A stretch of 32,000 nt of DNA, from assembly GCA_015257795.3 (NCBI GenBank), contig CP072208.2, positions 240,001 to 272,000 on the forward strand, given 5' to 3'. Positions 2,901 to 24,717 of this stretch are shown one piece after another. Made by a program: the position numbers and the translations under genes. Every line of letters starts with the position of its first letter. Positions within the stretch are counted from its first letter, which is position 1. The notes beneath the pieces are model-generated. The model did not search any database, had not been told where the DNA came from, and worked only from the letters and a program-made list of their open reading frames with translations. This stretch comes from Candidatus Nanogingivalaceae bacterium (GTDB lineage: Bacteria; Patescibacteriota; Saccharimonadia; Saccharimonadales; Saccharimonadaceae).

Positions 2901-3641
2901 TTACTCCATTCTATCAAAATTTTTATTAAATTGCCAGATTTCAATCCAATCTTCACCCTTTAATTCGCTTGGTTTTTTGGTTTTAAATTTCAAGCTACAA
3001 TGTTTTTTGTAAAATTCTGGAGTGGCGAACATTTTGTCAATAAAATCGTTAAAAATTGGCTGTTCTTCTTTCGAAATTAGCGGAGTTTCTCGCCGTTTCA
3101 TCTCAAAAAATACAGTTTCAACGGCTGGGGGTGGCGTGAAGTCAGTCTTACGGAGTGGTTTCTTTATTTTATTTTCGAAAAAAGGAAAAGTTTTTGCGCC
3201 TAAGGCTGAAGTGAAATTTTGTTCACCGGCTATTAGCTTACGCGCGAATTGTTTTTGTAGAATTAAATAAATACTTTTGGGTGAATTTTGGGCATTTACG
3301 AGTTTTTGAATGATAGGCGAGCTTAAATGAAACGGAATATTCGCACAAACTTTATAGTTTTGAGGCGATTTTGAGAGGTTGAAGTGTAAGAAGTCTGCAC
3401 GCAAAACCTCAACATTTTCAAGGTTTTTGGTGTTATTTTTTAATTTTTTGAAAGTTTCACTATCAAACTCAATTGCTAAAACTTGCGCAGATTTCTTACT
3501 GAGAGCAAAAGTAAAAACACCGCTTCCAGCGCCAATATCTAGCGTAAAATCGCGTTTTCGAATATTGCTATGCCCAACGAGCATTAGCGCGATTCGTGGC
3601 GAACGCAAGAAATTTTGTGAAATGCGGTGTTTTCTAGCCAT
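2901..3641 (-). CDS. rRNA adenine N6-(di)methyltransferase of the Erm/KsgA family, Erm-like in length and termini
   Basis: N-terminal SQNFL, SAM motif DIGAGSG, motif IV NIPFHLSSPI, and FTPPPAVETV. It is 246 aa with a C-terminal domain laid out like ErmC. The start codon abuts the permease stop at 3642. Confidence 0.8.
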   Translation of the reverse strand: MARKHRISQNFLRSPRIALMLVGHSNIRKRDFTLDIGAGSGVFTFALSKKSAQVLAIEFDSETFKKLKNNTKNLENVEVLRADFLHFNLSKSPQNYKVCANIPFHLSSPIIQKLVNAQNSPKSIYLILQKQFARKLIAGEQNFTSALGAKTFPFFENKIKKPLRKTDFTPPPAVETVFFEMKRRETPLISKEEQPIFNDFIDKMFATPEFYKKHCSLKFKTKKPSELKGEDWIEIWQFNKNFDRME

Positions 3642-4919
3642 TTATTCGTATCTCAAAGCTTCAATCGGGTCTTTTTTACTTGCACTTCGTGATGGTAAAG
3701 CACCAGCCAAAAAGGCCACAATGGCGATAGCTATAGTTATAATTGTATTATTTTGCAGTGTGAATTTAGTTAACATAAATCCGTCCATTCCCTTTAAGAA
3801 ACTTTCTGTTGCGACATGGTTAAGGGCGTTTCCTGCGCCTTGGGCGAGTAGAATTCCTAAAATCGAACCAAGGACGCCAATTAAAATTGCTTCAATGCTA
3901 AACAATTGAAAGATTTTTCCGTTTGAGAGCCCCATTGCTTTCATTAAGCCGATTTCACGAGTTCGCTCACGCACGCTCATATAAAGCGTGTTGATAATTC
4001 CAAAACTAGCTGCAAGAAGGGCAATTGCACCAAATACAATCAATGAACCAGTAATCCCATTGACTACGTTCATAATTGTTTCGACTTGATCTTTAGCTGT
4101 GCTTGCTGAATAGCCTGCTTTTTCAGCATCTTTTTTAATTTGGTCTAGTTTTTCTTTAGAAACTTCACCGTTAACTTGTGCTAAAACTACAAAACTACTA
4201 TCTTTAACTTCTTTTGGTGTGCTTTTAGATTGAAATGCGTAAAAATCATCATAGCTTGGGCGACTAACCGTAACCATTGCAGATTGAATCAAGCTTTTAG
4301 CTGTTACACCCGTAATTTTTTGAGTAAAGATTTTTTTCTCGCCTGTTAAAGTGTCCGCGATTTGAATGTTAAGTTCTTTACCGATTGCGCTTTGAGCGTC
4401 TTTAAAGCCCATAGGCTCAAGGTAATCTTGCGAAATCGTAATCTCGCCACGATTTACTGCTTTTTTACCCGCTAAGAAATCAAAGTTATACTTTTGGCCG
4501 TCCGCTTCAACGATAACTGTTGTGATTGTGAGTTTTTTGCCATCTTTATATTGAACGTAGTCAGGAGTTATAAAGTCATATAAAGCTGCTTTTTTAACGT
4601 TAGGAATTTTGTTGATTTTCTCGACATCTTTTAAATTTAAAGTTGCTTGCGAAAATCTTGGATTAACTTGTTTGCTTCCATCTTTATATTCTTTTGGGCC
4701 AAAGGTAGTAGCTTCTTGTTTTGGATTAAAATAAAGTATTGAATCTTCACTAAAAACCGAAAGCTGGCGTTGAATATAATCGTTTACACCCATATTTACC
4801 GCAGAAGTTAATGCAATTGTAAATGAACCGATACAAACGGCAATAATCGTTAAAAAGGTGCGACCCTTATTCCGCCACAAATTTGAAGCTGAAGTTCCAA
4901 TCATATCTAAAAATTTCAT
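3642..4919 (-). CDS. ABC transporter permease, FtsX/MacB-type (4 TM with a large extracytoplasmic domain)
   Basis: It starts MKFLDMIGTSASNLWRNKGRTFLTIIAV, typical of MacB/FtsX permeases. ATG 4919-4917 overlaps the ATPase stop (TAATG) and GGAG lies at 4930-4927. The C-terminal FtsX domain includes REIGLMKAMG. Confidence 0.85.
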   Translation of the reverse strand: MKFLDMIGTSASNLWRNKGRTFLTIIAVCIGSFTIALTSAVNMGVNDYIQRQLSVFSEDSILYFNPKQEATTFGPKEYKDGSKQVNPRFSQATLNLKDVEKINKIPNVKKAALYDFITPDYVQYKDGKKLTITTVIVEADGQKYNFDFLAGKKAVNRGEITISQDYLEPMGFKDAQSAIGKELNIQIADTLTGEKKIFTQKITGVTAKSLIQSAMVTVSRPSYDDFYAFQSKSTPKEVKDSSFVVLAQVNGEVSKEKLDQIKKDAEKAGYSASTAKDQVETIMNVVNGITGSLIVFGAIALLAASFGIINTLYMSVRERTREIGLMKAMGLSNGKIFQLFSIEAILIGVLGSILGILLAQGAGNALNHVATESFLKGMDGFMLTKFTLQNNTIITIAIAIVAFLAGALPSRSASKKDPIEALRYE

Positions 4920-5611
4920 TAGTTTTCTCCTTTCGAAATAATTTGACCATCTTGAATTCGAATTTGGCGATCGCATTTTTGCGCTAAAGCTTCATCGTGT
5001 GTAACAATCACTAAAGTAATTCCCTTTTCTCTGTTTAAGCCAAAAAGTAAATCTTCAACTTTTGCGCTTGTTTTTGAATCGAGGTTTCCGGTTGGCTCAT
5101 CTGCAAAAATAATTTTTGGCGAGTTCACGATTGCTCGCGCCACGCAAACGCGTTGTTTTTGCCCACCAGAAAGATTCGAAGCTTTATTTTTAGCTTTGTC
5201 GGTTAACTCAACTGCTTCGAGAGCCTTTAACGCGATTTCTTTGCGCTTTCTTGAGCTAATTCCGGCAATTTTTAGTGGCAAAATTACATTTTGTAAAACT
5301 GTATCCTTTGGATTCATAAAGAATTGTTGAAAAACAAAGCCAAAAGTTTGGTTTCGAAGTTTGTTTAAATTGCGTTTTTTCATTTTAGCGATATTTTGTC
5401 CATCAATAAAAACTTCGCCTTCATTCGGTTTATCGAGTGCTGCTAAAAGGTGCATTAAAGTTGATTTTCCACTACCGGATTTTCCGATAATTGCTACACT
5501 TTCACCTTGATTAATACTGAACGAAACACCATTTAATGCTTTAAAAAATGTGTTTCCATCACGATAAACTTTTACAAGATTTTTAACTTCTATAATCTTT
5601 TCTTTATCCAT
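4919..5611 (-). CDS. ABC transporter ATP-binding protein (MacB/LolD-type)
   Basis: Walker A GKSGSGKST, Q-loop, signature LSGGQKQRV, Walker B IIFADEPTGNLD and H-loop VTHD. SD AAGAAAGGA lies upstream. Confidence 0.9.
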   Translation of the reverse strand: MDKEKIIEVKNLVKVYRDGNTFFKALNGVSFSINQGESVAIIGKSGSGKSTLMHLLAALDKPNEGEVFIDGQNIAKMKKRNLNKLRNQTFGFVFQQFFMNPKDTVLQNVILPLKIAGISSRKRKEIALKALEAVELTDKAKNKASNLSGGQKQRVCVARAIVNSPKIIFADEPTGNLDSKTSAKVEDLLFGLNREKGITLVIVTHDEALAQKCDRQIRIQDGQIISKGEN

Positions 5612-8481: not shown

Positions 8482-8510
8482 ATAATAGCATAAAACTGTA
8501 AAAAAATCAA
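8482..8510 (-). promoter_or_regulatory. Promoter: -35 TTGATT, 17-nt spacer, -10 TATTAT, 9 nt before ATG 8472 (leaderless or near-leaderless)
   Basis: The minus-strand reading is ttgatt-tttttacagttttatgc-tattat-ttaaacact-ATGATG. There is no SD. Confidence 0.5.
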
Positions 8511-8663
8511 GATGGCGGTTATGCTTCTTTCTGGTTTTCGAAAAAGAAAATCGCTCAAAATGGCGGCTTGACATATAGCAACTTAAAACAATAATTTCTT
8601 TTAGATAATATAGGCAAACTCATCAAAATATTTAGGAATACATAAAATATTCCGGCAGAAAAT

Positions 8664-8705
8664 AAAGAGGGCATCAAATGATATATTGCCCTCTTTTTAT
8701 TTTAT
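8664..8705 (-). terminator. Rho-independent terminator downstream of the RloC-like gene
   Basis: AAAGAGGGCA (8664-8673) / 13-nt loop / TGCCCTCTTT (8687-8696) with T-runs on both strands. Confidence 0.65.
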
Positions 8706-8743
8706 ACATCACTTTTAAAGTACTTATAATTTATAAATATTTA

Positions 8744-11266
8744 TCAATGTTTAGTTTGTATATTCTTGATTTCTTTCAGCATACTTTTTAGCTCGTCTTT
8801 ATCAACCGGATTTTCCTCACTCTCAGTTCCGTTATGTAATGCTCCACCCGAGCAACGCCCATGAATAGTATGTAATATGTCAATAATCTCCGAATTGTTT
8901 TCAATTTTTTTTAATTCATCCCAGTTGATTCGGCTATTTTTATTACTATATTTAGTGGGGACTTGATTGTTTAAAATTATTTCATCAATAGCAAACTCAA
9001 CCGCTTTTCTTAGCTTACCGCAAACAAGTTGTTTACTATTATCTGACAATGGATTTTCTGATAATAATTTTTCGATATCAGAAATATAAGTATTTAAGTT
9101 TTCAGTATGTTTTATTTTTATTATACCTTTTTTGTCTTGCCCATCACTCAAAGTTTCGTAAAGGAAAATATGCTTGCCTTTTGATTTACCGCATCCTCCA
9201 TTTACATTTTTACAGATATGACCTTCGGAACCTGTCTCGAAACAATCGAGAAACATCTTATTGTGAGTAAAAATAATAATTTGATTATTTAACGACATTA
9301 ATAACTCAGAAAAATTACTCATGATTCGATGATCTAAACTATTGACAGGGTCATCAAAGATTATAGTACTTTGATTATGTGAAAGACTAATTTCGGAAAT
9401 GAATAAAGCTAGAGCGGTGGCTTTTTGTTCACCCTCGCTTAAGATATCTTCTATATTTTTATTATTTCCTAAAACTAGCTCTGTTTGTTGATTTCCTTTA
9501 TTGTTTGAAGCTTGTAATTGGATGGAAAGATTACCTAACCCAAGCTTCTTTAAATTTTGCTTAAATGTTTTAAAGAGATTGTCTGTAAGTAGGTCATTGT
9601 GTGCCTTTTTACTTAATAGGCTTAATTTTGAAGTAGTTATTTCAGATATAAATTGTTCCTCTTGAAATAATTTATTTCTTAGATGAACAAACTTACTAAG
9701 TTGAGCAAATTGAGAATTTAGTATAGCTTTTTCCTCGAGTGCTATTAATTGCTGATTGTATTTTTCTAAAGATTCTATTCTCTGGGACTGCTTAGAGTTT
9801 AATTCAATTTGTAATTGCTTGATATCACCTATTTCTTTGGATAGATTATTTAATAGCTTATCTTGTATTTTGGGTGCTTTTATAGGTTTTTGCCCTCTCA
9901 ACCTACGTAAGAGCGATTTTTTATTTTTAATTATCTGCTTGTTTAAGGTTATAAGCTTAGGATCATCTTCAAGGGAGAGTTCTATCTTTTCGCTCTTCAA
10001 ATTTACCTTAGAAATATTTTGTAGTACTAGAATTTTTTCCTTGATATCTGCTGTATTTTTATCTAGTTGAATTTGAGTAGTATCTTTTATAAATTTTGAA
10101 TAAGCTTTTGTAATTTCTAACGAAGTTTCATCATATAGCCGATGACAATATGGACATTTATCTTCCAGTTCAAACTCTTCGCAATAACTTATTCCTGATT
10201 TGATAAAATTAGTCCAAGTATCACTATCAGTACCAGGTATATTATTAAAAACTTCAAACTGTTGTTTCGCAACACGATATTTCTTTGTTAATTCAAATCT
10301 ACTTTTAACAAGATTATCGACATTTTTTTGTTCTTCTTTAAGTAACGTAATTATTTTTCTAAATTCTAACTTTATTTTTTTAAGTTTTTCAAGTTTTATT
10401 TCATTGATTTTAATAGCATCGGCTGAATTCGATTTATTAAGATCCTCTATAGACTTTTTAGCCTTTTCAAGTTGATTTTTTTCTTTTGATGAAAAATTTT
10501 CAAAACTTTTTATTTTAACAATATCTTCTTTTTCGAAACTATCTTTATTTAAAAACTCTCTGAAAGATTCTGTAACCTTCTCGAGGTCAATGTCAGGAAG
10601 TGATTCTCTGTCAAGTTTTATCTTTTCTTTTGCTAATTCTTTAATTTCAATTATTAAATCACTTATTTCTGAAAAATATGAAAGTGCGTAAGGTTTAATT
10701 AAGAGTTCATCTGAGTTTCTTTTTTGCAAATAGTTATTAGCATACTCTGTATCAAAAACCCTAATAGAACGTAAATCCGAAATATTCGAAGTATTTGACC
10801 AAGTACTGGACTTAGGGGTATTATCTAAAAGATATTCAATATCAACATTAATATTCTTCGGAGAATCGCTATATACATTGTGCAAAATATTTTTTGATTT
10901 TGCGTGTCCTATCATATTATTTAGTACTCTAAAGTAACTACTCTTCCCAGTACCGTTAAGACCATAAATTATGTTAATTTGTGAAGAAAAAGAAATTTTT
11001 TGTTCATCAGAAAGAGCGTTCACTCCAGAATGATGATTTAATTTTTTTAATATTATTTTTTCATTGTTCGAATTAAATTCGTAAGATGGGGATTTTAATT
11101 CAGGTATTCCTTTTCTTTGAAGTAAATAATCTGCTAAATCATTCTTTGCATTATCATCAATAACTCCCTGATTCTCAATAAAGTATTTTATAACATAAGA
11201 TATCCAAGCATTGCATTTATCGTTTTCGGCTAATTCTATTAAATAATCAATTGCGTTGTTTTTCAT
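8744..11266 (-). CDS. RloC/PrrC-family (AAA_13-type) ABC-like ATPase with a coiled-coil insert, CxxC hook and C-terminal HEPN-like putative RNase domain
   Basis: Walker A GLNGTGKSS (aa 102-110, nt 10937-10963). A K/E/L-rich coiled coil of about 400 aa contains CPYC (aa 371-374, nt 10145-10156). Then come signature LSEGEQKA (aa 609-616), Walker B IIFDDP, D-loop SLD and H-loop FTHN. The C-terminal 160 aa carry LRKAVE (R753/E757) and RCSGGALH (an Rx6H motif, aa 804-811). SD AGAGGAG lies upstream. Confidence 0.7.
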   Translation of the reverse strand: MKNNAIDYLIELAENDKCNAWISYVIKYFIENQGVIDDNAKNDLADYLLQRKGIPELKSPSYEFNSNNEKIILKKLNHHSGVNALSDEQKISFSSQINIIYGLNGTGKSSYFRVLNNMIGHAKSKNILHNVYSDSPKNINVDIEYLLDNTPKSSTWSNTSNISDLRSIRVFDTEYANNYLQKRNSDELLIKPYALSYFSEISDLIIEIKELAKEKIKLDRESLPDIDLEKVTESFREFLNKDSFEKEDIVKIKSFENFSSKEKNQLEKAKKSIEDLNKSNSADAIKINEIKLEKLKKIKLEFRKIITLLKEEQKNVDNLVKSRFELTKKYRVAKQQFEVFNNIPGTDSDTWTNFIKSGISYCEEFELEDKCPYCHRLYDETSLEITKAYSKFIKDTTQIQLDKNTADIKEKILVLQNISKVNLKSEKIELSLEDDPKLITLNKQIIKNKKSLLRRLRGQKPIKAPKIQDKLLNNLSKEIGDIKQLQIELNSKQSQRIESLEKYNQQLIALEEKAILNSQFAQLSKFVHLRNKLFQEEQFISEITTSKLSLLSKKAHNDLLTDNLFKTFKQNLKKLGLGNLSIQLQASNNKGNQQTELVLGNNKNIEDILSEGEQKATALALFISEISLSHNQSTIIFDDPVNSLDHRIMSNFSELLMSLNNQIIIFTHNKMFLDCFETGSEGHICKNVNGGCGKSKGKHIFLYETLSDGQDKKGIIKIKHTENLNTYISDIEKLLSENPLSDNSKQLVCGKLRKAVEFAIDEIILNNQVPTKYSNKNSRINWDELKKIENNSEIIDILHTIHGRCSGGALHNGTESEENPVDKDELKSMLKEIKNIQTKH

Positions 11267-11321
11267 ATAAAATCTACTCCTCTTCTTACTTAGAAATAAC
11301 TTAAAACTACCTACCGCTTTT

Positions 11322-11330
11322 ATTATATCA
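11322..11330 (-). promoter_or_regulatory. Extended -10 (TGaTATAAT) upstream of the RloC-like gene
   Basis: The minus-strand reading is tgatataat, about 55 nt upstream of ATG 11266. The leader carries SD AGAGGAG. The -35 is weak. Confidence 0.4.
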
Positions 11331-11641
11331 TATTGTAGAGATAATGCGAGGCAGAGTTTAGTCTTAAGCAGCTCTTAAAACGTGCCAACTAAAATACTCT
11401 GGGGAAATATTTCGTTAAATTAAATTTTGCCCATAAAATTAATTCTTTCAAGATACTGTAGTTTCCGTTTCTTAGTTGAGAAATACTATATTATTTGTAA
11501 TAAAGCTTGTTCGAATCAGTCTTTGAATTGTGTCGATGAATAAAATTCTTTCAACTCCATAAAACGAGACTTTTAAGATTAGTCTATCACATGAAATACT
11601 ATAAAACCTATTCTAGATTCGTCAGTTTAAATCACTCCTAG

Positions 11642-11902
11642 AGGTGCTTTAATCCTATTTCTGACTTAACCGAAAAACTCACCAAACAATAAGAAGATAG
11701 CTTGAATATCTCCAAGTTTATGACAAAAATCTCTAAATATACACAAGTTTTGTAATTAACCGTTGAAATGGTGGATGAACTGATTGATAAGGTTGTGATT
11801 CATAAGCCAACTGGCATGAAACGCAATCGAATTATCCAGATAGACATCTATTACAATTCCATCAGAAAACTAAATATCGAAAAAGCGAGTCAGATGGACT
11901 GA
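11642..11902 (+). pseudogene. Decayed C-terminal fragment of a large serine recombinase (TndX-like, DUF4368-type C-terminus)
   Basis: One frame reads ...LTEKLTKQ*EDSLNISKFMTKISKYTQVL*LTVEMVDELIDKVVIHKPTGMKRNRIIQIDIYYNSIRKL...*. In-frame stops lie at 11690 and 11753. There is no catalytic N-terminal domain or start codon. The pattern (xFIxxVxKYT..ELTxEMLxELIDKIVVH...IxIYYNFI) matches my memory of DUF4368 tails. Confidence 0.6.
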
Positions 11903-11907
11903 CTCGC
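11885..11907 (+). terminator. Perfect 9-bp hairpin at the end of the recombinase remnant
   Basis: GCGAGTCAG / atgga / CTGACTCGC. It overlaps the remnant's stop codon. The downstream T-run is weak, so terminator function is uncertain. Confidence 0.35.
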
Positions 11908-11974
11908 TACTATTAATCCCCTAATAACTAAATTGCTAAGGTGTTAGCTTGACCAAACGAGCAATTTATTTGTT

Positions 11975-13033
11975 TTAAGCTTCTTCTGCTAAAGCGTAGG
12001 TTGCTTTTGCGACGCGCTTGAATTCTTTTTTGCTTTGAAGGTTTAACAAAACAGTTGTTTCTTTAACTTTGCGTTTCTCGAGCACACGTTTAACGATTTC
12101 GTCACGATAAAGGGGTTCACCAGCTTCACGCAAAACAGCTGTAATAATATCAGCAACAGTTCCACGCTTAAAGCCCCAAGTGTCAAGGGCATAAATTCCG
12201 CGACCAATCAAAACAAAACGTTTGTCTTTGATTAATTCGTTGTGAATTGCTTGAGTTGTAACGGATTTTCGGCTAAAATCACTCTTTCGAATTTCTTCTG
12301 CGATTTCCGAAAAATGCATTGGCTCTTTGTGAGATTCTAAAATCACAAAAATTTTATCACGAATATTTTTTGGATTTACCGCTGGCCATTTTTCTAGACC
12401 CCAAAGACCATTTAGCGTTGCAAGAAGTTTTGAAATTCCGGCAATTGCGTTAATTTGGCTTGGGTGCTCATAGCTCAACTGTTCGTCGAGTTGATCTAAT
12501 GTCATTGGACTTTTGTTCTTTTTGATGATATTGACAATTTCATCGATTGATTTTTTAATTTTTCGTTCATCACCGTATTCTGCATTAGCAATTGCGCTAC
12601 GATATTTGTCGTTTTCTTGCACCAGCACTAATTTTGAGCTAATTTCAGCAATGAATAAAAAGTTAAAAATTTGATTATCGTTAGCTTCAGATTCAATAGT
12701 TTTTTCAACGAGTTCTTTTGTTTTTGAAATTCGTCCAACTTCGGCAAGATTTCGAATGATACTTTTCTCGATTTCGGCTAAATGTTCAATATTACCCTTT
12801 TCGGCGGCAATTTTTAGTCGAATAAGTGCAGCTTTCTCGAGCTGTCGAACACGCTCGCGAGTAATGTCGAGCTTTTCACCAATTTGTTCAAGCGTTTGCT
12901 TTTTTTCGCCAAGCCCAAAGCGGCGGTTAATTATTTCGCGTTCTCGTGGCTGGTCAATAATTTGCAGAGCATTCGAAATAACCGTTTGAATTAATTGGAC
13001 TTTTTCGTTCTGAATCTGATTTTCTTGTTCCAT
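11975..13033 (-). CDS. Sigma-70 region-4 HTH protein with repeated C-terminal HARE-HTH-like winged-helix modules
   Basis: N-terminal REREIINRRFGLGEKKQTLEQIGEKLDITRERVRQLEKAALIRLK is sigma70 region 4. Three modules then end in ...GLWGLEKW, ...RGIYALDTWGF and ...KATYALAE, resembling the HARE-HTH of the RNAP delta subunit. No sigma regions 2 or 3 are visible. Confidence 0.7.
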   Translation of the reverse strand: MEQENQIQNEKVQLIQTVISNALQIIDQPREREIINRRFGLGEKKQTLEQIGEKLDITRERVRQLEKAALIRLKIAAEKGNIEHLAEIEKSIIRNLAEVGRISKTKELVEKTIESEANDNQIFNFLFIAEISSKLVLVQENDKYRSAIANAEYGDERKIKKSIDEIVNIIKKNKSPMTLDQLDEQLSYEHPSQINAIAGISKLLATLNGLWGLEKWPAVNPKNIRDKIFVILESHKEPMHFSEIAEEIRKSDFSRKSVTTQAIHNELIKDKRFVLIGRGIYALDTWGFKRGTVADIITAVLREAGEPLYRDEIVKRVLEKRKVKETTVLLNLQSKKEFKRVAKATYALAEEA

Positions 13034-13069
13034 AATTCCCTTGTTAAAATTAATATTACCATAAAAACG

Positions 13070-13105
13070 AAGTATTATTTATAAATAATACTTACGACTT
13101 GTCAA
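13070..13105 (-). promoter_or_regulatory. Promoter with perfect -35 TTGACA (13105-13100) and a perfect 24-bp palindrome (13070-13093) covering the spacer and -10
   Basis: AAGTATTATTTA|TAAATAATACTT is a perfect inverted repeat. The -10-like TATAAA/ATAAAT lies 16-17 nt from TTGACA. The element sits about 45 nt upstream of ATG 13033. Confidence 0.55.
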
Positions 13106-13163
13106 TACCATTTATCTCTTCTTTATTTATATTATACCACAAAATTGTAAAAAACAATAAAAA

Positions 13164-13200
13164 ATGACATAAAAATTTATTTTTTAAACTTTTATGTCAT
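13164..13200 (-). terminator. Rho-independent terminator of topA
   Basis: Perfect 11-bp arms ATGACATAAAA (13164-13174) / TTTTATGTCAT (13190-13200). The minus strand continues tttttattgtttttt. Confidence 0.7.
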
Positions 13201-13231
13201 TATGCTTGCGCTTATAATAAAATATTAACTG

Positions 13232-15610
13232 CTATTTTTCGGATTTTTTCGTTTTCGAAACGGATTTTTTAGTATTTTTCGAAGTTGTTTTTCGCTTAGT
13301 TGATTTTCTAGTTGTGGTTTTTTTGCCAGATTTTCGTGATTTTGCAACTTCAATTAATTCGCTTGCTTGTTTTTCGGTAATTTTTTCAATATCTAAATCT
13401 TTTGGTAGTAGTGCTTTAACCTCGTTGTCGGCGATATATTTTCGACCAAATCCACCACGAGAAATTTTAATTCCATTTTTAAACTTTTTAAGTACCTTTT
13501 TCTCATCAGCTTTTAGTTTTTCTTCATAAAGCATTTGCGCCTCGGTTTCGGTAATTTCAAACGGTGACATCGGTTTGATGCTTACGAAAGTGTTTTCAAC
13601 TTTAATGTAAGGGCCATATTGACCAATGTTCGAAGTGATCTCTTTGCCGTCGGCGGTTTTTCCCACGTGGCGCGGAAGAAGGAACATTTTTAGTGCGTTT
13701 TCAAGCGAGACGGTTTCGATTTTTTCACCGGCAGGCATTGGTGCAAATTTAACTTCTTCGCCCTCAACTTTATTGTCACCCAGCTGAATCATTGGACCAA
13801 AACGACCAAAGCGTGCAAAAACTTTTCGGCCAGTTTTTGGATCAATTCCGAGCTCGCGAGCGGGCGCCACAGCGTTGCGATCAATCTCGCCGGATTCCAT
13901 GATTAATTTATGAAAAGGCTTATAAAAATTATCAAGAACTTCAAGCCGATTTTCATCACCAACGGCAATTTTATCGAAGTCATTTTCAAGATTCGCTGTC
14001 CAACCATAGTCTACAACTTGATTGAAATAATCGTTTAAGAAGTCGCTTAAAACTTCTCCGCTTGCTGTTGGGAGGAGTTTACCTTTAGTAGAACCAGTTT
14101 TTTCTTGAACAACTTCCCGGTTGATTTTATTTTTCGAAAGTGAAATTTGAATTGCGTCGCGAGGTTTACCTTCACCTTCACCTTTTGCAGCGTAGCCACG
14201 CGCCTGAATTGTGTCCAAAATTGTGGCGTAAGTTGAAGGGCGGCCAATTCCTAAATCTTCGAGTTTTTTCACGAGCGAGCCTTCACTGTAGCGTGCTGGT
14301 GGACGTGAGAAAACTTCTTTCGCAATAATTTCATTAAAATTCAAACTATCGCCATTGGCGAGTTCTGGTAAAAATTCATCTTTTTTGCCGCTTGAATAAA
14401 CTTTCAAGAATCCATCAAAAACAACAACTTCGCCCTTTGCTTCAAAATAATATTCTTGGTTCGAAATTTCAATTTTAACAGTGGTTTTTTCGATTTGTGC
14501 TGGCGCCATTTGACTAGCGAGTGTTCGGTTGCGAATCAATGTATAGATTTTCTGTAAATCTTGGCTGGTAGAAACTTTTTCGTTTTCAATCCCGGTTGGT
14601 CGGATAGCCTCGTGGGCTTCTTGTGCTCCAGCTGATTTTGTGGCAAATTTTCGTGCTTTATGATATTTTTCGCCAAATTTTTTCTTAATGAAATCTGCGC
14701 TTGAAGCGATCGCAAAACTACTCAAATTCACGCTGTCGGTTCGCATATAGGTGATTTTACCAGATTGATAGAGTTTTTGTGCCGCCGCCATTGTACTTTT
14801 GGCTGAAAAACCGAGTCTTGCGTTAGCCTCTTGCTGAAGTGTTGAAGTTGTAAAAGGTGCGCTCGGGTTGCGAGTGCCGGGAGTTTTCGAAACGCTTGCA
14901 ACTTTAAAATTCGCCGTTTTTAGGCTTTCGAGAAAATTAGTTGCAGTTTTTTCGGTTTCGAATTTTTTGTTAAGTTCGGCTTTTAGAATTTCACCAGAAT
15001 TTGGCACGATGAATTCGCCCGTAATTTTAAACGAACTTTTTGCACCAAATTTTTCAATTTCACGCTCGCGTTCTACAAGCAGTTTTACTGCTGGGCTTTG
15101 CACGCGACCGGCACTTTTTCCGCCTGGAACTTTTCGCCACACAACTGGGCTTAAGTCAAAACCAACTAGCCAGTCCAAAGTTTGGCGAGTTTGTTGAGCT
15201 TCGACCATTTTCATGTCGATTTTTCGCGGATTTTTAATCGCATTCTCGATTGCGGATTTTGTAATTTCGTGAAAAACGATCCGCTTGGTTGTTTCGGGGT
15301 TTAATTTTAAGACGTCGCAAAGGTGCCAAGCAATTGCTTCACCTTCGCGGTCTTCATCGGTTGCGAGCCAGACTTCATCTGCCGCCTTCACGGCTTTTCG
15401 AAGTTCGCTCACAACTTTCTTTTTTCCTGGATCAACTTCAAAAGTAATTTTATATTTATTATTTGTTTCAATTGGTCGCCCGCCGGCTTTATTTTTTTTA
15501 GCAATTTGGCGAATGTGTCCAACGCTGGACATTACTGTAAAATCTTTACCGAGATATTTTTCGATAGTTTTCGCCTTGGCTGGGCTCTCTACGATTACTA
15601 AATTCTTCAT
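13232..15610 (-). CDS. topA: DNA topoisomerase I (type IA), Cys-less C-terminal domains with a Lys-rich tail
   Basis: Toprim start MKNLVIVESPAKAKTIEKYLG, DEDREGE, and the active-site region GKITYMRTDS. C-terminal repeats (GRFGPMIQLG, GQYGPYIKV, GGFGRKYI) have no Zn-ribbon cysteines. The tail is KSGKKTTTRKSTKRKTTSKNTKKSVSKTKKSEK. The start is placed at ATG 15610, downstream of the promoter. Confidence 0.92.
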   Translation of the reverse strand: MKNLVIVESPAKAKTIEKYLGKDFTVMSSVGHIRQIAKKNKAGGRPIETNNKYKITFEVDPGKKKVVSELRKAVKAADEVWLATDEDREGEAIAWHLCDVLKLNPETTKRIVFHEITKSAIENAIKNPRKIDMKMVEAQQTRQTLDWLVGFDLSPVVWRKVPGGKSAGRVQSPAVKLLVEREREIEKFGAKSSFKITGEFIVPNSGEILKAELNKKFETEKTATNFLESLKTANFKVASVSKTPGTRNPSAPFTTSTLQQEANARLGFSAKSTMAAAQKLYQSGKITYMRTDSVNLSSFAIASSADFIKKKFGEKYHKARKFATKSAGAQEAHEAIRPTGIENEKVSTSQDLQKIYTLIRNRTLASQMAPAQIEKTTVKIEISNQEYYFEAKGEVVVFDGFLKVYSSGKKDEFLPELANGDSLNFNEIIAKEVFSRPPARYSEGSLVKKLEDLGIGRPSTYATILDTIQARGYAAKGEGEGKPRDAIQISLSKNKINREVVQEKTGSTKGKLLPTASGEVLSDFLNDYFNQVVDYGWTANLENDFDKIAVGDENRLEVLDNFYKPFHKLIMESGEIDRNAVAPARELGIDPKTGRKVFARFGRFGPMIQLGDNKVEGEEVKFAPMPAGEKIETVSLENALKMFLLPRHVGKTADGKEITSNIGQYGPYIKVENTFVSIKPMSPFEITETEAQMLYEEKLKADEKKVLKKFKNGIKISRGGFGRKYIADNEVKALLPKDLDIEKITEKQASELIEVAKSRKSGKKTTTRKSTKRKTTSKNTKKSVSKTKKSEK

Positions 15611-15621
15611 AAGCTTAATAT

Positions 15622-15649
15622 ATTTTACCACTTTAAATAATTTTGTGCA
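15622..15649 (-). promoter_or_regulatory. topA promoter: -35 TTGCAC, 17-nt spacer, extended -10 TGgTAAAAT, 11 nt before the ATG
   Basis: The minus-strand reading is ttgcac-aaaattatttaaagtgg-taaaat-atattaagctt-ATG. The track's GTG at 15631 lies upstream of the -10 and is therefore unlikely to be the start. Confidence 0.5.
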
Positions 15650-15764: not shown

Positions 15765-16424
15765 CTATGCAATCGCCTCAACTTTATTGAATTTGCGCTT
15801 TTTGAGTTCAAAAACTACATCTGATTCTGCTGCAACTTCGCGTTCATGCGTCACGATAATTACAATTTTATCATTTTGGTGTGCGATTTTTTTAAAGATT
15901 TTTACAATTTCACCAGTAGTTTTTTCGTCAAGGTTTCCGGTTGGCTCATCGGCGATAATAATCTCGTTGCCAGTTGCTAGTGCACGCACAATTGCAACGC
16001 GTTGTTGCTGTCCGCCCGAAAGTCGCGAAACTGGTTTGTCGATTAAATCTTTCGAAATTCCCGCTTCTTCAAAAAGCCCTTCGATATTTTTTGCTGAATT
16101 TTTGCCTGAAATTTCCAGCGCGGTTTGCACGTTTTGTCGCGCGGTCATATAAGGCAAAAGGTTATACGCTTGAAAAATCGTAGAAACTTTGCTTTTTCGA
16201 AAGTTTGTTAAACCAATCTTTTCAATCGTTTTACCGTTTAATTTAATTTTACCTTCTTTTGGGGAATCTAGCCCCGCCAGGAGCGAGAGAAAAGTGGTTT
16301 TCCCGCTCCCCGATTGACCCAAAATCGCATAAACCTTGCCTTTTTCGAACTGTAAATTCTCATTTTCGAAAAGGAAATCATCTCGATTTTGGTACCAATA
16401 ACTTAAATTTTCTACTTCTAACAT
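15765..16424 (-). CDS. ABC transporter ATP-binding protein
   Basis: Walker A GQSGSGKTT, signature LSGGQQQRV, Walker B IIIADEPTGNLD and H-loop VTHE. Confidence 0.9.
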   Translation of the reverse strand: MLEVENLSYWYQNRDDFLFENENLQFEKGKVYAILGQSGSGKTTFLSLLAGLDSPKEGKIKLNGKTIEKIGLTNFRKSKVSTIFQAYNLLPYMTARQNVQTALEISGKNSAKNIEGLFEEAGISKDLIDKPVSRLSGGQQQRVAIVRALATGNEIIIADEPTGNLDEKTTGEIVKIFKKIAHQNDKIVIIVTHEREVAAESDVVFELKKRKFNKVEAIA

Positions 16425-23612: not shown

Positions 23613-23621
23613 TGATATAAT
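23613..23621 (+). promoter_or_regulatory. Extended -10 TGaTATAAT, 10 nt before ATG 23632
   Basis: The track's ATG at 23620 overlaps the -10 hexamer, so the next ATG (23632) is preferred. Confidence 0.45.
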
Positions 23622-23631
23622 GTTTGATAAT

Positions 23632-24717
23632 ATGAGCGAAAAAAATCAAAAGCGAAATCTTAATATCGACCTAATTAAAGTTTTGGCTGTATTTTTAGTT
23701 GTGCTTGTTCATTTTTTTAATAGAACGGGCTATTATGGTTTACCATCTGGGTCACTATTGATGTTTTTTGCAACCTTTATTTGGAGTGTTGCGATGGCTT
23801 GTGTTCCGTTATTCTTGATTGCAACTGGATATTTAATGAAAAATGCTAAATATAGCAAAAAATTTTTTACAAATTTATTGCGAGTGGTTGGATATTACGC
23901 TGCGGCAGTTATGGTTTTAACGATCACAGATAAACAGGCTCATGGTTTTGGGCTTATTCGTGTGTTTTTCGAAAATCTCTTCACTTTTAACCACTATAGC
24001 TGGTATGTGAATATGTATATTGGTTTATATTTAATGTCACCAATGTTAAATGCGGCTTTTGAGAGCTTAAAAACCAAGAAAAATCAGCTAATAGCAATAG
24101 GCGGATGCTTATTTTTAGTTACTGCCCCAATGACATTAGCGGTATTTGATAGTTTTTTAGGAATGCAAGTTCCTGATTATTTGCGAAAAGCTGCACCAAA
24201 TCACTGGGTAGTTATTTGGCCATTTTTATACTATTTTATTGGTATGTTTATCCGAAAGTACGGCGAAACTAAAAACCATAAAATTAAAAATAAATATAAA
24301 ATCGGTTTATTTTTTGCAATTATTTTTAATACTTTATTAGTTCGAATTATTTCCTCTAAAACCTTTTGCCCAGAATGGGGATTTTTAGGTATTGTTCTTG
24401 TTTCAACATTTTTGTTTTTAACTATTTTAAATTCAAAAATTACTATTAAAAATAAAGTCTTTAATATAGTTATTCAATTTATTTCGAAAAACACGCTTTC
24501 AATCTATTTGCTTTCCTGGATTGCTGATATAAGATTTTATAATATTATTAATACTAAATTTGGTGGTTTTAAAGGTTCTTTCTTGCGAATGCCAGTACTT
24601 GTCATATTGATTTTTATATTTGATATTTTGGTTGGCTTGGTGTTTGTTGCTATGATTAAGATTCTTGCAATAATCGCTAAAAAAATCCAAAAAACAGCAA
24701 AACAAAAAAGGCGATAG
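23632..24717 (+). CDS. Acyltransferase family 3 (OatA/WecH-like integral membrane O-acyltransferase)
   Basis: NIDLIKVLAVFLVVLVHFF (the conserved His near TM1) and about 10 TM helices throughout. Confidence 0.8.
   Translation: MSEKNQKRNLNIDLIKVLAVFLVVLVHFFNRTGYYGLPSGSLLMFFATFIWSVAMACVPLFLIATGYLMKNAKYSKKFFTNLLRVVGYYAAAVMVLTITDKQAHGFGLIRVFFENLFTFNHYSWYVNMYIGLYLMSPMLNAAFESLKTKKNQLIAIGGCLFLVTAPMTLAVFDSFLGMQVPDYLRKAAPNHWVVIWPFLYYFIGMFIRKYGETKNHKIKNKYKIGLFFAIIFNTLLVRIISSKTFCPEWGFLGIVLVSTFLFLTILNSKITIKNKVFNIVIQFISKNTLSIYLLSWIADIRFYNIINTKFGGFKGSFLRMPVLVILIFIFDILVGLVFVAMIKILAIIAKKIQKTAKQKRR

Follow-up and report, generated by a model that had tools for sequence, protein, structure and literature searches.

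A 3.4-kb AT-rich cassette found in Saccharibacteria and streptococci encodes an RloC-like ATPase, a candidate stand-alone defence protein

A 32-kb stretch of the Candidatus Nanogingivalaceae bacterium genome (positions 240,001-272,000 of CP072208.2, assembly GCA_015257795.3; hereafter the window) carries on its minus strand, at 8744-11266 with the stop codon included, an ATG-initiated gene for an 840-residue RloC-like ATPase of the AAA_13 and PDC-S06 families. In an original prediction, made from the letters of the sequence, the gene was described as an AT-rich island encoding a candidate stand-alone anti-phage suicide tRNase. This raises the question of where such a gene came from, how it reached its present position and what its product does. 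We consider it probable that the interval represents a self-contained cassette, acquired by horizontal transfer from Streptococcus-like Firmicutes, and that it encodes an RloC-like stand-alone abortive-infection defence protein with a HEPN-like C-terminal RNase domain. In public records, the exact 840-residue protein is present on 91 contigs, the complete 691,584-bp genome CP076102.2 among these, and its NCBI name is 'AAA family ATPase [Candidatus Nanogingivalaceae bacterium]'.

The question of whether the gene belongs to its locus was approached by scanning species-representative genomes with the neighbouring type IV coupling protein (T4CP), which yielded 80 loci, mostly from Saccharibacteria. 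Three neighbouring proteins were searched by tblastn against these 80 loci, and two of the loci, L010 and L078, were compared with the window at the base level. In L010, the gene for a sigma-like protein is directly adjacent to the T4CP gene and an AAA_13 gene is missing, with flanking proteins 98-99% and flanking DNA 93-94% identical to those of the window. The same empty arrangement was observed in L078, at 92-93% protein identity, and the adjacency of both genes without the AAA_13 gene is also seen in about 50 more distant Saccharibacteria genomes. Since the locus is empty in all of these, and not occupied throughout the clade, the island call stands. Only the limits of the island, initially placed at 8575-11974, have to be corrected: flank homology to the empty sites ends at 11955 and restarts at 8560, so that the whole cassette, of about 3.39 kb, is located at 8561-11954 on the minus strand (boundaries +/- 3 nucleotides).

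The insert is also set apart by its composition. Its GC content is 0.291 compared to 0.373 in the remaining window, and that of the RloC-like open reading frame (ORF) is 0.286, compared to 0.373 +/- 0.029 across 20 other ORFs of the window. In tetranucleotide usage, the insert is the most deviant 3.4-kb stretch of the window, with a deviation of 0.357 versus 0.190 +/- 0.043. GC and k-mer profiles are thus in agreement with the predicted AT-richness; the neighbouring T4CP gene is indeed richer in GC, but with 0.403 over its whole length it lies slightly below the 43-48% that had been assigned to it. A depletion of TTCGAA in the interval had been predicted as well. This motif is more than threefold over-represented in the window, with 90 sites versus 26.8 +/- 5.3 in dinucleotide shuffles (for example at 2183-2224 and 16344-16370). 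Only four sites fall within the insert (1.18 per kb versus 3.0 per kb outside), and equal densities inside and outside would be expected from base composition; the depletion has a factor of about 0.4 and not 0.5. TTCGAA could be a motif related to methylation or restriction-modification (R-M), or one of the uptake type. A second low-GC ORF of the window, at 23620-24717 (GC 0.298), codes for an Acyl_transf_3 membrane acyltransferase, and its composition probably reflects membrane-protein bias.

Beyond what had been predicted, the unit turned out to be a 3.4-kb cassette that also occurs in Streptococcus, is present at many loci and is AT-rich in every host. No fewer than eight loci, in Saccharibacteria and in Streptococcus or Firmicutes-type hosts, were found to carry this cassette of about 3.4 kb. 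Besides the window copy, which lies between the sigma-like and T4CP genes of a saccharibacterium (Nanogingivalaceae), there is a copy in a second Saccharibacteria lineage between transglycosylase and AIM24 genes (L001, 93-94% DNA identity). Copies with about 86% DNA identity are located between CHAP and shr in S. equi (L090) and between rpoC and pgk in S. anginosus (L092), and a copy with 74% protein identity lies between a cation ATPase gene and def in Streptococcus sp. (L095). The remaining three are found in streptococcal or Firmicutes-type contexts, with Rrf2 and IS (L099, 71% protein identity), glyoxalase and AraC-rhamnose (L105, 90%) and MazG-like and ISL3 (L108, 85%) as neighbours. The GC content of the gene is 28-30% in every host, while that of the flanks spans 30-43%; therefore, AT-richness is a property of the cassette and not of the host. 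In a neighbour-joining tree rooted with a 41% identical homolog, the Saccharibacteria copies form a clade inside the Firmicutes copies, and this nesting points to a transfer from Streptococcus-like Firmicutes to Saccharibacteria. Together with the empty sister sites, these data bear out the view of a horizontally acquired, AT-rich single-gene island. As judged from dN/dS values of 0.22-0.25 in all comparisons, the gene is under purifying selection. No close relative of the protein is encoded on IMG/VR viral contigs, and a tblastn search of plasmids returned relatives with less than 30% identity only, all of them annotated as 'AAA family ATPase'. In the 90% cluster of the protein, several S. 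suis and S. equi entries are fragments of 226-349 residues, so that in some streptococci the gene may have become a pseudogene or been split by gene calling.

We then asked what kind of protein the cassette encodes. To assess residue conservation, 42 full-length homologs with identities as low as 28% were aligned, and the full-length protein was modelled with AlphaFold2 (AF2; mean pLDDT 82.9). In the model, an N-terminal three-helix domain is followed by an ABC head, very long helices to both sides of the CxxC, a small region of beta structure and, at the C-terminus, a further helical domain. All predicted motifs were found at the expected residues of the translation, and the features given below lie on the minus strand. 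The protein begins with a family-specific helical domain of about 65 residues (11072-11266; helices 5-14, 20-31 and 38-48), in which Y8, L9 and W21 are invariant. It is followed by the Walker A motif GLNGTGKSS (residues 102-110; 10937-10963), with G102, N104, G105, G107, K108 and S109 invariant. The zinc-hook motif CPYC (residues 371-374; 10145-10156) is situated at the break between two long helices, 282-365 and 380-574, and both C371 and C374 are conserved in 42/42 homologs. By translation and alignment, the second half of the ATPase extends from the ABC signature LSEGEQ (residues 609-614) through the Walker B/D-loop IIFDDP (635-640) at 9347-9442 to the invariant H-loop histidine H668 (9263-9265). 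At the junction of the ATPase head and the C-terminal domain there is a putative small zinc knuckle, H683-x-C685-x6-C692-x6-H699 (9170-9220), in which H683 and C685 are invariant, H699 is found in 41/42 homologs and a second Cys is always nearby. Going by these residues, the cluster (aa 683-699), which is absent from the original prediction, could bind zinc and form a possible second zinc site.

Profile searches gave a significant match to Pfam AAA_13 (PF13166), with 77.5 bits versus a gathering cut-off of 36, between residues 95-737 and profile positions 16-624 of 713. The match to the PADLOC model PDLC04892 of PDC-S06 covers the protein in full length (E = 0, 1154.7 bits, residues 1-839 versus profile 1-842 of 843), which places it in a family of defence candidates, in line with the original prediction. 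PDC-S06 is a computationally defined single-gene phage-defence candidate with several subfamilies (models of 693-862 residues). The gene is thus a further member of a known candidate family, PDC-S06/RloC-like, in an unusual host, and, among the records found, the first PDC-S06 member placed in Saccharibacteria. When the full-length model was compared with the Protein Data Bank (PDB) by Foldseek, Rad50 was the top match, and SMC heads, Lamassu LmuB and retron-associated ATPases were also among the best, while sequence and profile searches of the PDB gave matches at the level of ABC motifs or noise only. The protein shares the head, coiled-coil and (hook) layout with Rad50/SbcC, LmuB and the retron I-A ATPase; in contrast to these, it has no partner nuclease gene and carries an effector-like domain fused in cis. 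With regard to Lamassu, the LmuB match has an E-value of just 9e-8 (29.7 bits), and no LmuA gene is adjacent in the single-gene cassette.

RloC has been defined by PrrC-like ABC motifs, a Rad50-like coiled-coil/CxxC insert, a size of 658-897 residues and a C-proximal Arg-X3-Glu-X36-52-His, often with a Ser before the His (Davidov & Kaufmann 2008, PMC2610378). The predicted RloC layout is supported by motifs, conservation and the AF2 model: with its 840 residues, the window protein falls into this size range, and its ABC head (Walker A, signature, Walker B/D-loop and switch His, all of them invariant in the 42 homologs) is split by a coiled-coil insert with an apical CxxC hook, of which antiparallel geometry and zinc binding are predicted. 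By published residue positions, K44, C291, D572, R692, E696 and H737 of GkaRloC from Geobacillus kaustophilus (Davidov & Kaufmann 2008, Klaiman et al. 2012; PMC2610378, PMC3458546) are collinear with K108, C371, D638, R753, E757 and H811 of the window protein. There are also differences. The spacing from E to H is 53, one residue beyond the published 36-52, and the invariant Ser (S806) stands five residues before the His and not next to it. Compared to GkaRloC, an extra N-terminal domain of about 64 residues is present (K108 versus K44). The H-x-C...C...H knuckle is a further difference, and such a cluster is not described for RloC in the literature examined. A search seeded with a 158-residue GkaRloC stretch, taken from the supplement of PMC2610378 after optical character recognition and with its rows evidently scrambled, gave no matches. 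In the sister PDC-S06 subfamily PDLC04893, a Ralstonia megaplasmid protein has R-x3-E-x49-H with ...YSRFEH, and the C-terminal domain of this type aligns to the window family with the R-x3-E pair in register, although weakly (hhalign E 0.005). This Ralstonia protein was considered as the published orthologue Q8XW56; no match could be made, and it is an IS5-truncated PDC-S06 member.

With PrrC, the window protein has in common an AAA_13 ATPase and a C-terminal R-x3-E...H domain. PrrC differs from it in its size of 341-416 residues, in the lack of a coiled coil and in its invariable location within a type Ic R-M locus, while the window protein, with hook, shows neither type Ic hsd linkage nor the short hook-less form. 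Forms of about 515-525 residues do exist in the family (P0191, P0193, P0209-P0211, P0217, P0218, P0224 and others), with the same head and C-terminal domain and without coiled coil and hook; these short forms, of about 520 residues, parallel the PrrC/RloC pair. It had also been pointed out that, unlike classical prr and rlo loci, the gene has no flanking type I or type III R-M genes. None were found across the 32-kb window, so the absence is true, but it is what would be expected, since only 8/73 RloC orthologues are linked to R-M genes and an internal zinc-hook/ATPase switch has been proposed to remove the need for a silencing partner and to explain the lateral mobility of RloC (PMC2610378, PMC3458546, PMC3874168). 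A stand-alone copy is normal for RloC, and the window gene resembles RloC in being a single gene that is usually unlinked to R-M and laterally transferred. Distant relatives with the same C-terminal domain have defence genes as neighbours: one is part of a type I hsd locus, with HsdS on one side and HsdR on the other (L131), one is flanked by an RE_endonuc protein and Mrr (L129), one adjoins an AbiJ-like protein (L133) and one follows HNH-Mtase-Mtase-HNH (L102). Directly downstream of homologs of about 40% identity there is a conserved gene of 110-112 residues (MVDQYP.ITLCGSTKFKKEF...; L126:3069-3404, L127:5036-5371, L128:4393-4728 and L129:5036-5365) with no Pfam match, which may be a partner gene in this subfamily.

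The C-terminal domain (residues 720-840; 8747-9109, minus strand) had been predicted to resemble anticodon nucleases and HEPN proteins. It is helical in the AF2 model (helices 724-735, 742-764, 782-788, 792-804 and 823-839), with a pLDDT of 86-93 in the helices when modelled alone, and we regard it as a HEPN-like putative nuclease domain. Both predicted motifs are present. In R753-x3-E757-x3-D761-E762 (LRKAVEFAIDE; 8981-9010), position 753 is R in 36 and K in 6 homologs, position 757 is E in 39 and D in 3, and D761 and E762 are invariant, as is W782 further on. In the Rx6H-like motif R804-C-S806-GGAL-H811 (8834-8857), S806 and H811 are invariant. The top Foldseek matches of the domain were almost exclusively HEPN proteins, as the HEPN prediction would have it. 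Several observations weigh against a reading of this domain as an RloC-like HEPN nuclease. R804 is found in 32/42 homologs and missing in 10, some of them with R-x2-H or no Arg, so that the arginine of the 'Rx6H' motif is not universal, and H811 lies in a loop with a pLDDT below 50. The Foldseek matches to the PDB are weak: the best is 2q00 (E 0.04, TM 0.43/0.57), and the further ones (HepT toxins, 4nqf, 2hsb and sacsin HEPN) have E-values of 0.1-1. No HEPN or other Pfam family was found at E <= 10 beyond noise in residues 639-840, the PrrC model in the PADLOC library (PDLC02360) gave no match at E <= 1, and the AAA_13 alignment halts at profile position 624/713, before the motif of the C-terminal domain. 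In an exhaustive HMMER search of 1.84 billion proteins with a profile of the domain, 149 clusters were recovered, all of the same family. As for function, the literature mentions PDC-S06 solely as a predicted candidate, and direct phage exclusion by RloC itself was not found demonstrated in the papers examined.

The searches that were run thus did not link the domain by sequence to the characterised RloC and PrrC nucleases. It gave no match in a BFVD structure search either. Nearly all of its clusters have the same architecture of about 840 residues, and ten carriers scanned with PADLOC, the most distant and the short forms included, were all assigned to PDC-S06 (10/10). The most serious alternative is that the Rad50-like DNA-sensing switch and the defence role are the same, and that the C-terminal domain is not an anticodon nuclease: it might act as a general RNase or as a DNase, or serve in interaction or oligomerisation as a module without catalytic activity, as in SMC-like defence ATPases with varied effectors. 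The restriction of the domain to one family, the lack of a PrrC or HEPN profile match and the variable R804 would all fit such a module, the invariant D761-E762 and H811 would equally suit metal-dependent chemistry, and there are weak hidden Markov model links to LmuB and AriA. However, the order and spacing of R-x3-E...S...H resemble those of RloC, the fold matches are dominated by HEPN proteins and the cassette has no partner effector gene. We therefore regard this alternative as possible but rather unlikely.

For the preferred reading, an RloC-like abortive-infection protein, the following course of events may be envisaged by analogy. As proposed for GkaRloC, hook and ATPase would hold the C-terminal domain silent. 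DNA ends or foreign DNA present during phage infection might then trigger its ATP-dependent release, and the freed domain, with R753, E757, S806 and H811, would cut tRNA or other RNA. Such cutting would shut down translation in the infected cell and lead to abortive infection. From the likeness to RloC we infer an anticodon-nuclease (tRNase) activity of the protein; in the same way, its trigger, RNase chemistry and substrate, and protection against phages, would follow those proposed for RloC.

Apart from the gene, the cassette consists of a dead serine-recombinase tail, a promoter and a terminator. The predicted start of the Shine-Dalgarno type, promoter and terminator were all found on the minus strand. 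The ribosome-binding site GAAGAGGAG (11277-11285), 10 nucleotides upstream of the ATG, is kept in all copies, and the extended -10 promoter element TGATATAAT (11322-11330) is kept even in the copies with 71-74% identity. The intrinsic terminator of the gene (8659-8694) is formed by a hairpin at 8666-8694 and the U-run UUUAUUUU, with a folding energy of -17.6 kcal/mol and a z-score of -3.05. At the other end, an entry hairpin with U-run is located at 11879-11908 (-17.1 kcal/mol; z -3.6 on the minus and -5.3 on the plus strand). Its stem differences among copies are compensatory (TCAG/CTGA versus CCAA/TTGG) and, read on the plus strand, it forms the end of the recombinase remnant. This remnant, at 11657-11902 on the plus strand, comprises about 80 codons with in-frame stops and is a decayed piece from the C-terminal end of a large serine recombinase of the DUF4368 type. 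DUF4368 is the domain with which such recombinases end, and a 44-residue ORF within the remnant (11768-11902) matches it with an E-value of 2e-7. In the Streptococcus copies, the remnant ORFs have 60-86 residues. A remnant of about 67-80 codons was seen in 16/20 copies, 0.28-0.70 kb and mostly about 0.38 kb upstream of the gene start, and an intact recombinase gene in 0/20. The catalytic resolvase and the recombinase/zinc-ribbon domains were not found at the scar. Because only the DUF4368 tail survives and no copy is intact, the upstream recombinase can be assigned, on its sequence, to the pseudogene remnants, as had been predicted. An intact parent recombinase was not found in phage and plasmid collections, where the best matches are 34-38% identical.

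Between the promoter and the remnant lies a conserved block (11340-11656) that is 80-100% identical in copies with at least 78% protein identity and replaced in the 71-74% copies. No ORF in it is kept across copies, and it has no folding z-score signal and no Rfam family; its interpretation as a non-coding RNA or small gene was therefore rejected. With a divergence of 9%, compared to a dS of 0.40, it is conserved far more strongly than synonymous sites. Since the block is 98-100% identical in L112, the protein of which is just 88% identical, this apparent constraint may reflect mosaic recombination.

The question remains of how the cassette came to its sites. In L010, the empty site holds an unbroken terminator-like hairpin, AAATCGCTCATTTTTGGGCGATTTTCTTTTT, that is, AAATCGCTCA-TTTTT-GGGCGATTTTCTTTTT. 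In the window, the two halves of this hairpin flank the insert, the left half at 11955-11968 and the right half with the T-run at 8541-8560 (both minus strand), and the rebuilt site folds with -9.9 kcal/mol and a z-score of -3.7. We extended this analysis to the nine copies in which conserved end motifs allowed us to place both ends (window, L001, L090, L092, L105, L112, L113, L121 and L124). Joining the flanks in silico rebuilt a hairpin across the junction at 9/9 sites; the cassette always sits in the loop of an intrinsic terminator, and this terminator differs from site to site. There are 7-17 cross-junction pairs at all nine sites versus a mean of 5.3 in random 40-mers, and the mean folding energy is -11.1 kcal/mol versus -3.9 kcal/mol for random 40-mers of the same loci. 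Compared to shuffled flanks, z is <= -3.7 at 6/9 sites. A T-rich run comes after every rebuilt hairpin, with 6-11 T among the next 16 nucleotides, and at every mapped site the RloC-like gene is co-directional with the terminated host gene. Since the cassette carries its own entry hairpin and U-run, this hairpin would stand in for the split host terminator and restore termination of the upstream sigma-like gene. The window junction has two additional T's, as might result from the 2-bp crossover of a serine recombinase. A 7-bp repeat, GTCAAGC, at both ends of the window copy was considered as a target duplication and dropped, since it is missing from the empty site and its left-end version varies among copies.

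We tentatively propose that the 3.4-kb unit is an undescribed non-autonomous mobile defence cassette that inserts in one orientation and precisely into the loops of intrinsic terminators, with its own entry hairpin re-supplying termination. For its mobilisation it would depend on a factor acting in trans, presumably a serine recombinase of the DUF4368 type that recognises hairpin-shaped targets, and it might have moved its one RloC-like gene from streptococcus to streptococcus and, across phyla, into the ultra-small Saccharibacteria. The attP-type match to be expected of a parent recombinase is ...CTGCTATATGTCAAGC / TAGCAGTTTAGTTA... The closest known elements are, as we assume, CIME-like decayed integrative elements (att ends, no recombinase) and TnpX/TndX-type (DUF4368) large serine recombinase transposons. 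The cassette resembles them in its many sites, in the crossover-compatible T's and in that one of its ends retains only the final ~80 codons of a DUF4368 recombinase. It differs in that neither a parent element nor a recombinase was found in intact form; for these elements, terminator-loop targeting was not found described in the literature. If exclusive use of terminator loops is confirmed, it would represent a 'safe-harbour' insertion strategy. On Staphylococcus plasmids (L103), an intact small serine recombinase gene and a PDC-S06 homolog (subfamily PDLC04891) form a divergent pair (2155-2763 and 2975-5518), and a resolvase is next to GkaRloC in Davidov's table (PMC2610378). Association of RloC-like genes with serine recombinases looks like a recurrent one.

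Around the insertion point, the gene order topoisomerase I, sigma-like (Sigma70_r4 and HARE-HTH) and T4CP-like (DUF8128 and TrwB) is kept in about 50 Saccharibacteria genomes (window 11975-15631; L011-L089). The first ATG of the 966-residue T4CP ORF falls within the right end of the cassette (8561-8574). Because other T4CP gene calls begin about 35 codons downstream (931-932 residues) and a promoter-like site is present at 8482-8510, the start of the long ORF is probably an insertion artefact.

Instead of acting against phages, the gene might mainly serve the cassette, as an addiction or stabilisation toxin or by excluding competing mobile or transforming DNA. It is always found in a compact mobile cassette, at many loci and in naturally transformable hosts, the cassette is compositionally foreign everywhere, and a DNA-end sensor could react to incoming DNA. 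Against this, there is no antitoxin-like partner, distant relatives are located in chromosomal R-M and abortive-infection neighbourhoods without the cassette, and loss of the gene is apparently tolerated, since several S. suis entries are fragments; we consider this explanation unlikely. It is still less probable that the insert is non-functional passenger DNA in the Saccharibacteria host: the adjoining recombinase is dead and the composition has not shifted toward that of the host, but the 840-codon ORF is intact on 91 contigs, comparison of the two Saccharibacteria lineages gives a dN/dS of 0.25, and promoter, ribosome-binding site and terminator are conserved. Finally, a housekeeping DNA-repair ATPase of the Rad50/SbcC type, suggested by the best structural match and the conserved zinc hook, is effectively refuted by the absence of the gene from the locus in sister and other Saccharibacteria genomes, its patchy, mobile distribution and its context, with no Mre11/SbcD partner gene and an extra effector-like C-terminal domain.

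The cultivable Streptococcus hosts carry copies with 82-90% identity, in which the PDC-S06/RloC-like family could be assayed against phages, and pairs of strains that naturally differ in the presence of the cassette are available. The cassette is also evidence of a recent flow of genes across phyla, to an epibiont from donor Firmicutes that share its oral habitat. In Saccharibacteria and other bacteria of the Candidate Phyla Radiation, genomes are tiny and few anti-phage systems have been recognised. Here, a 691-kb genome retains a 2.5-kb candidate abortive-infection gene that is kept by purifying selection.

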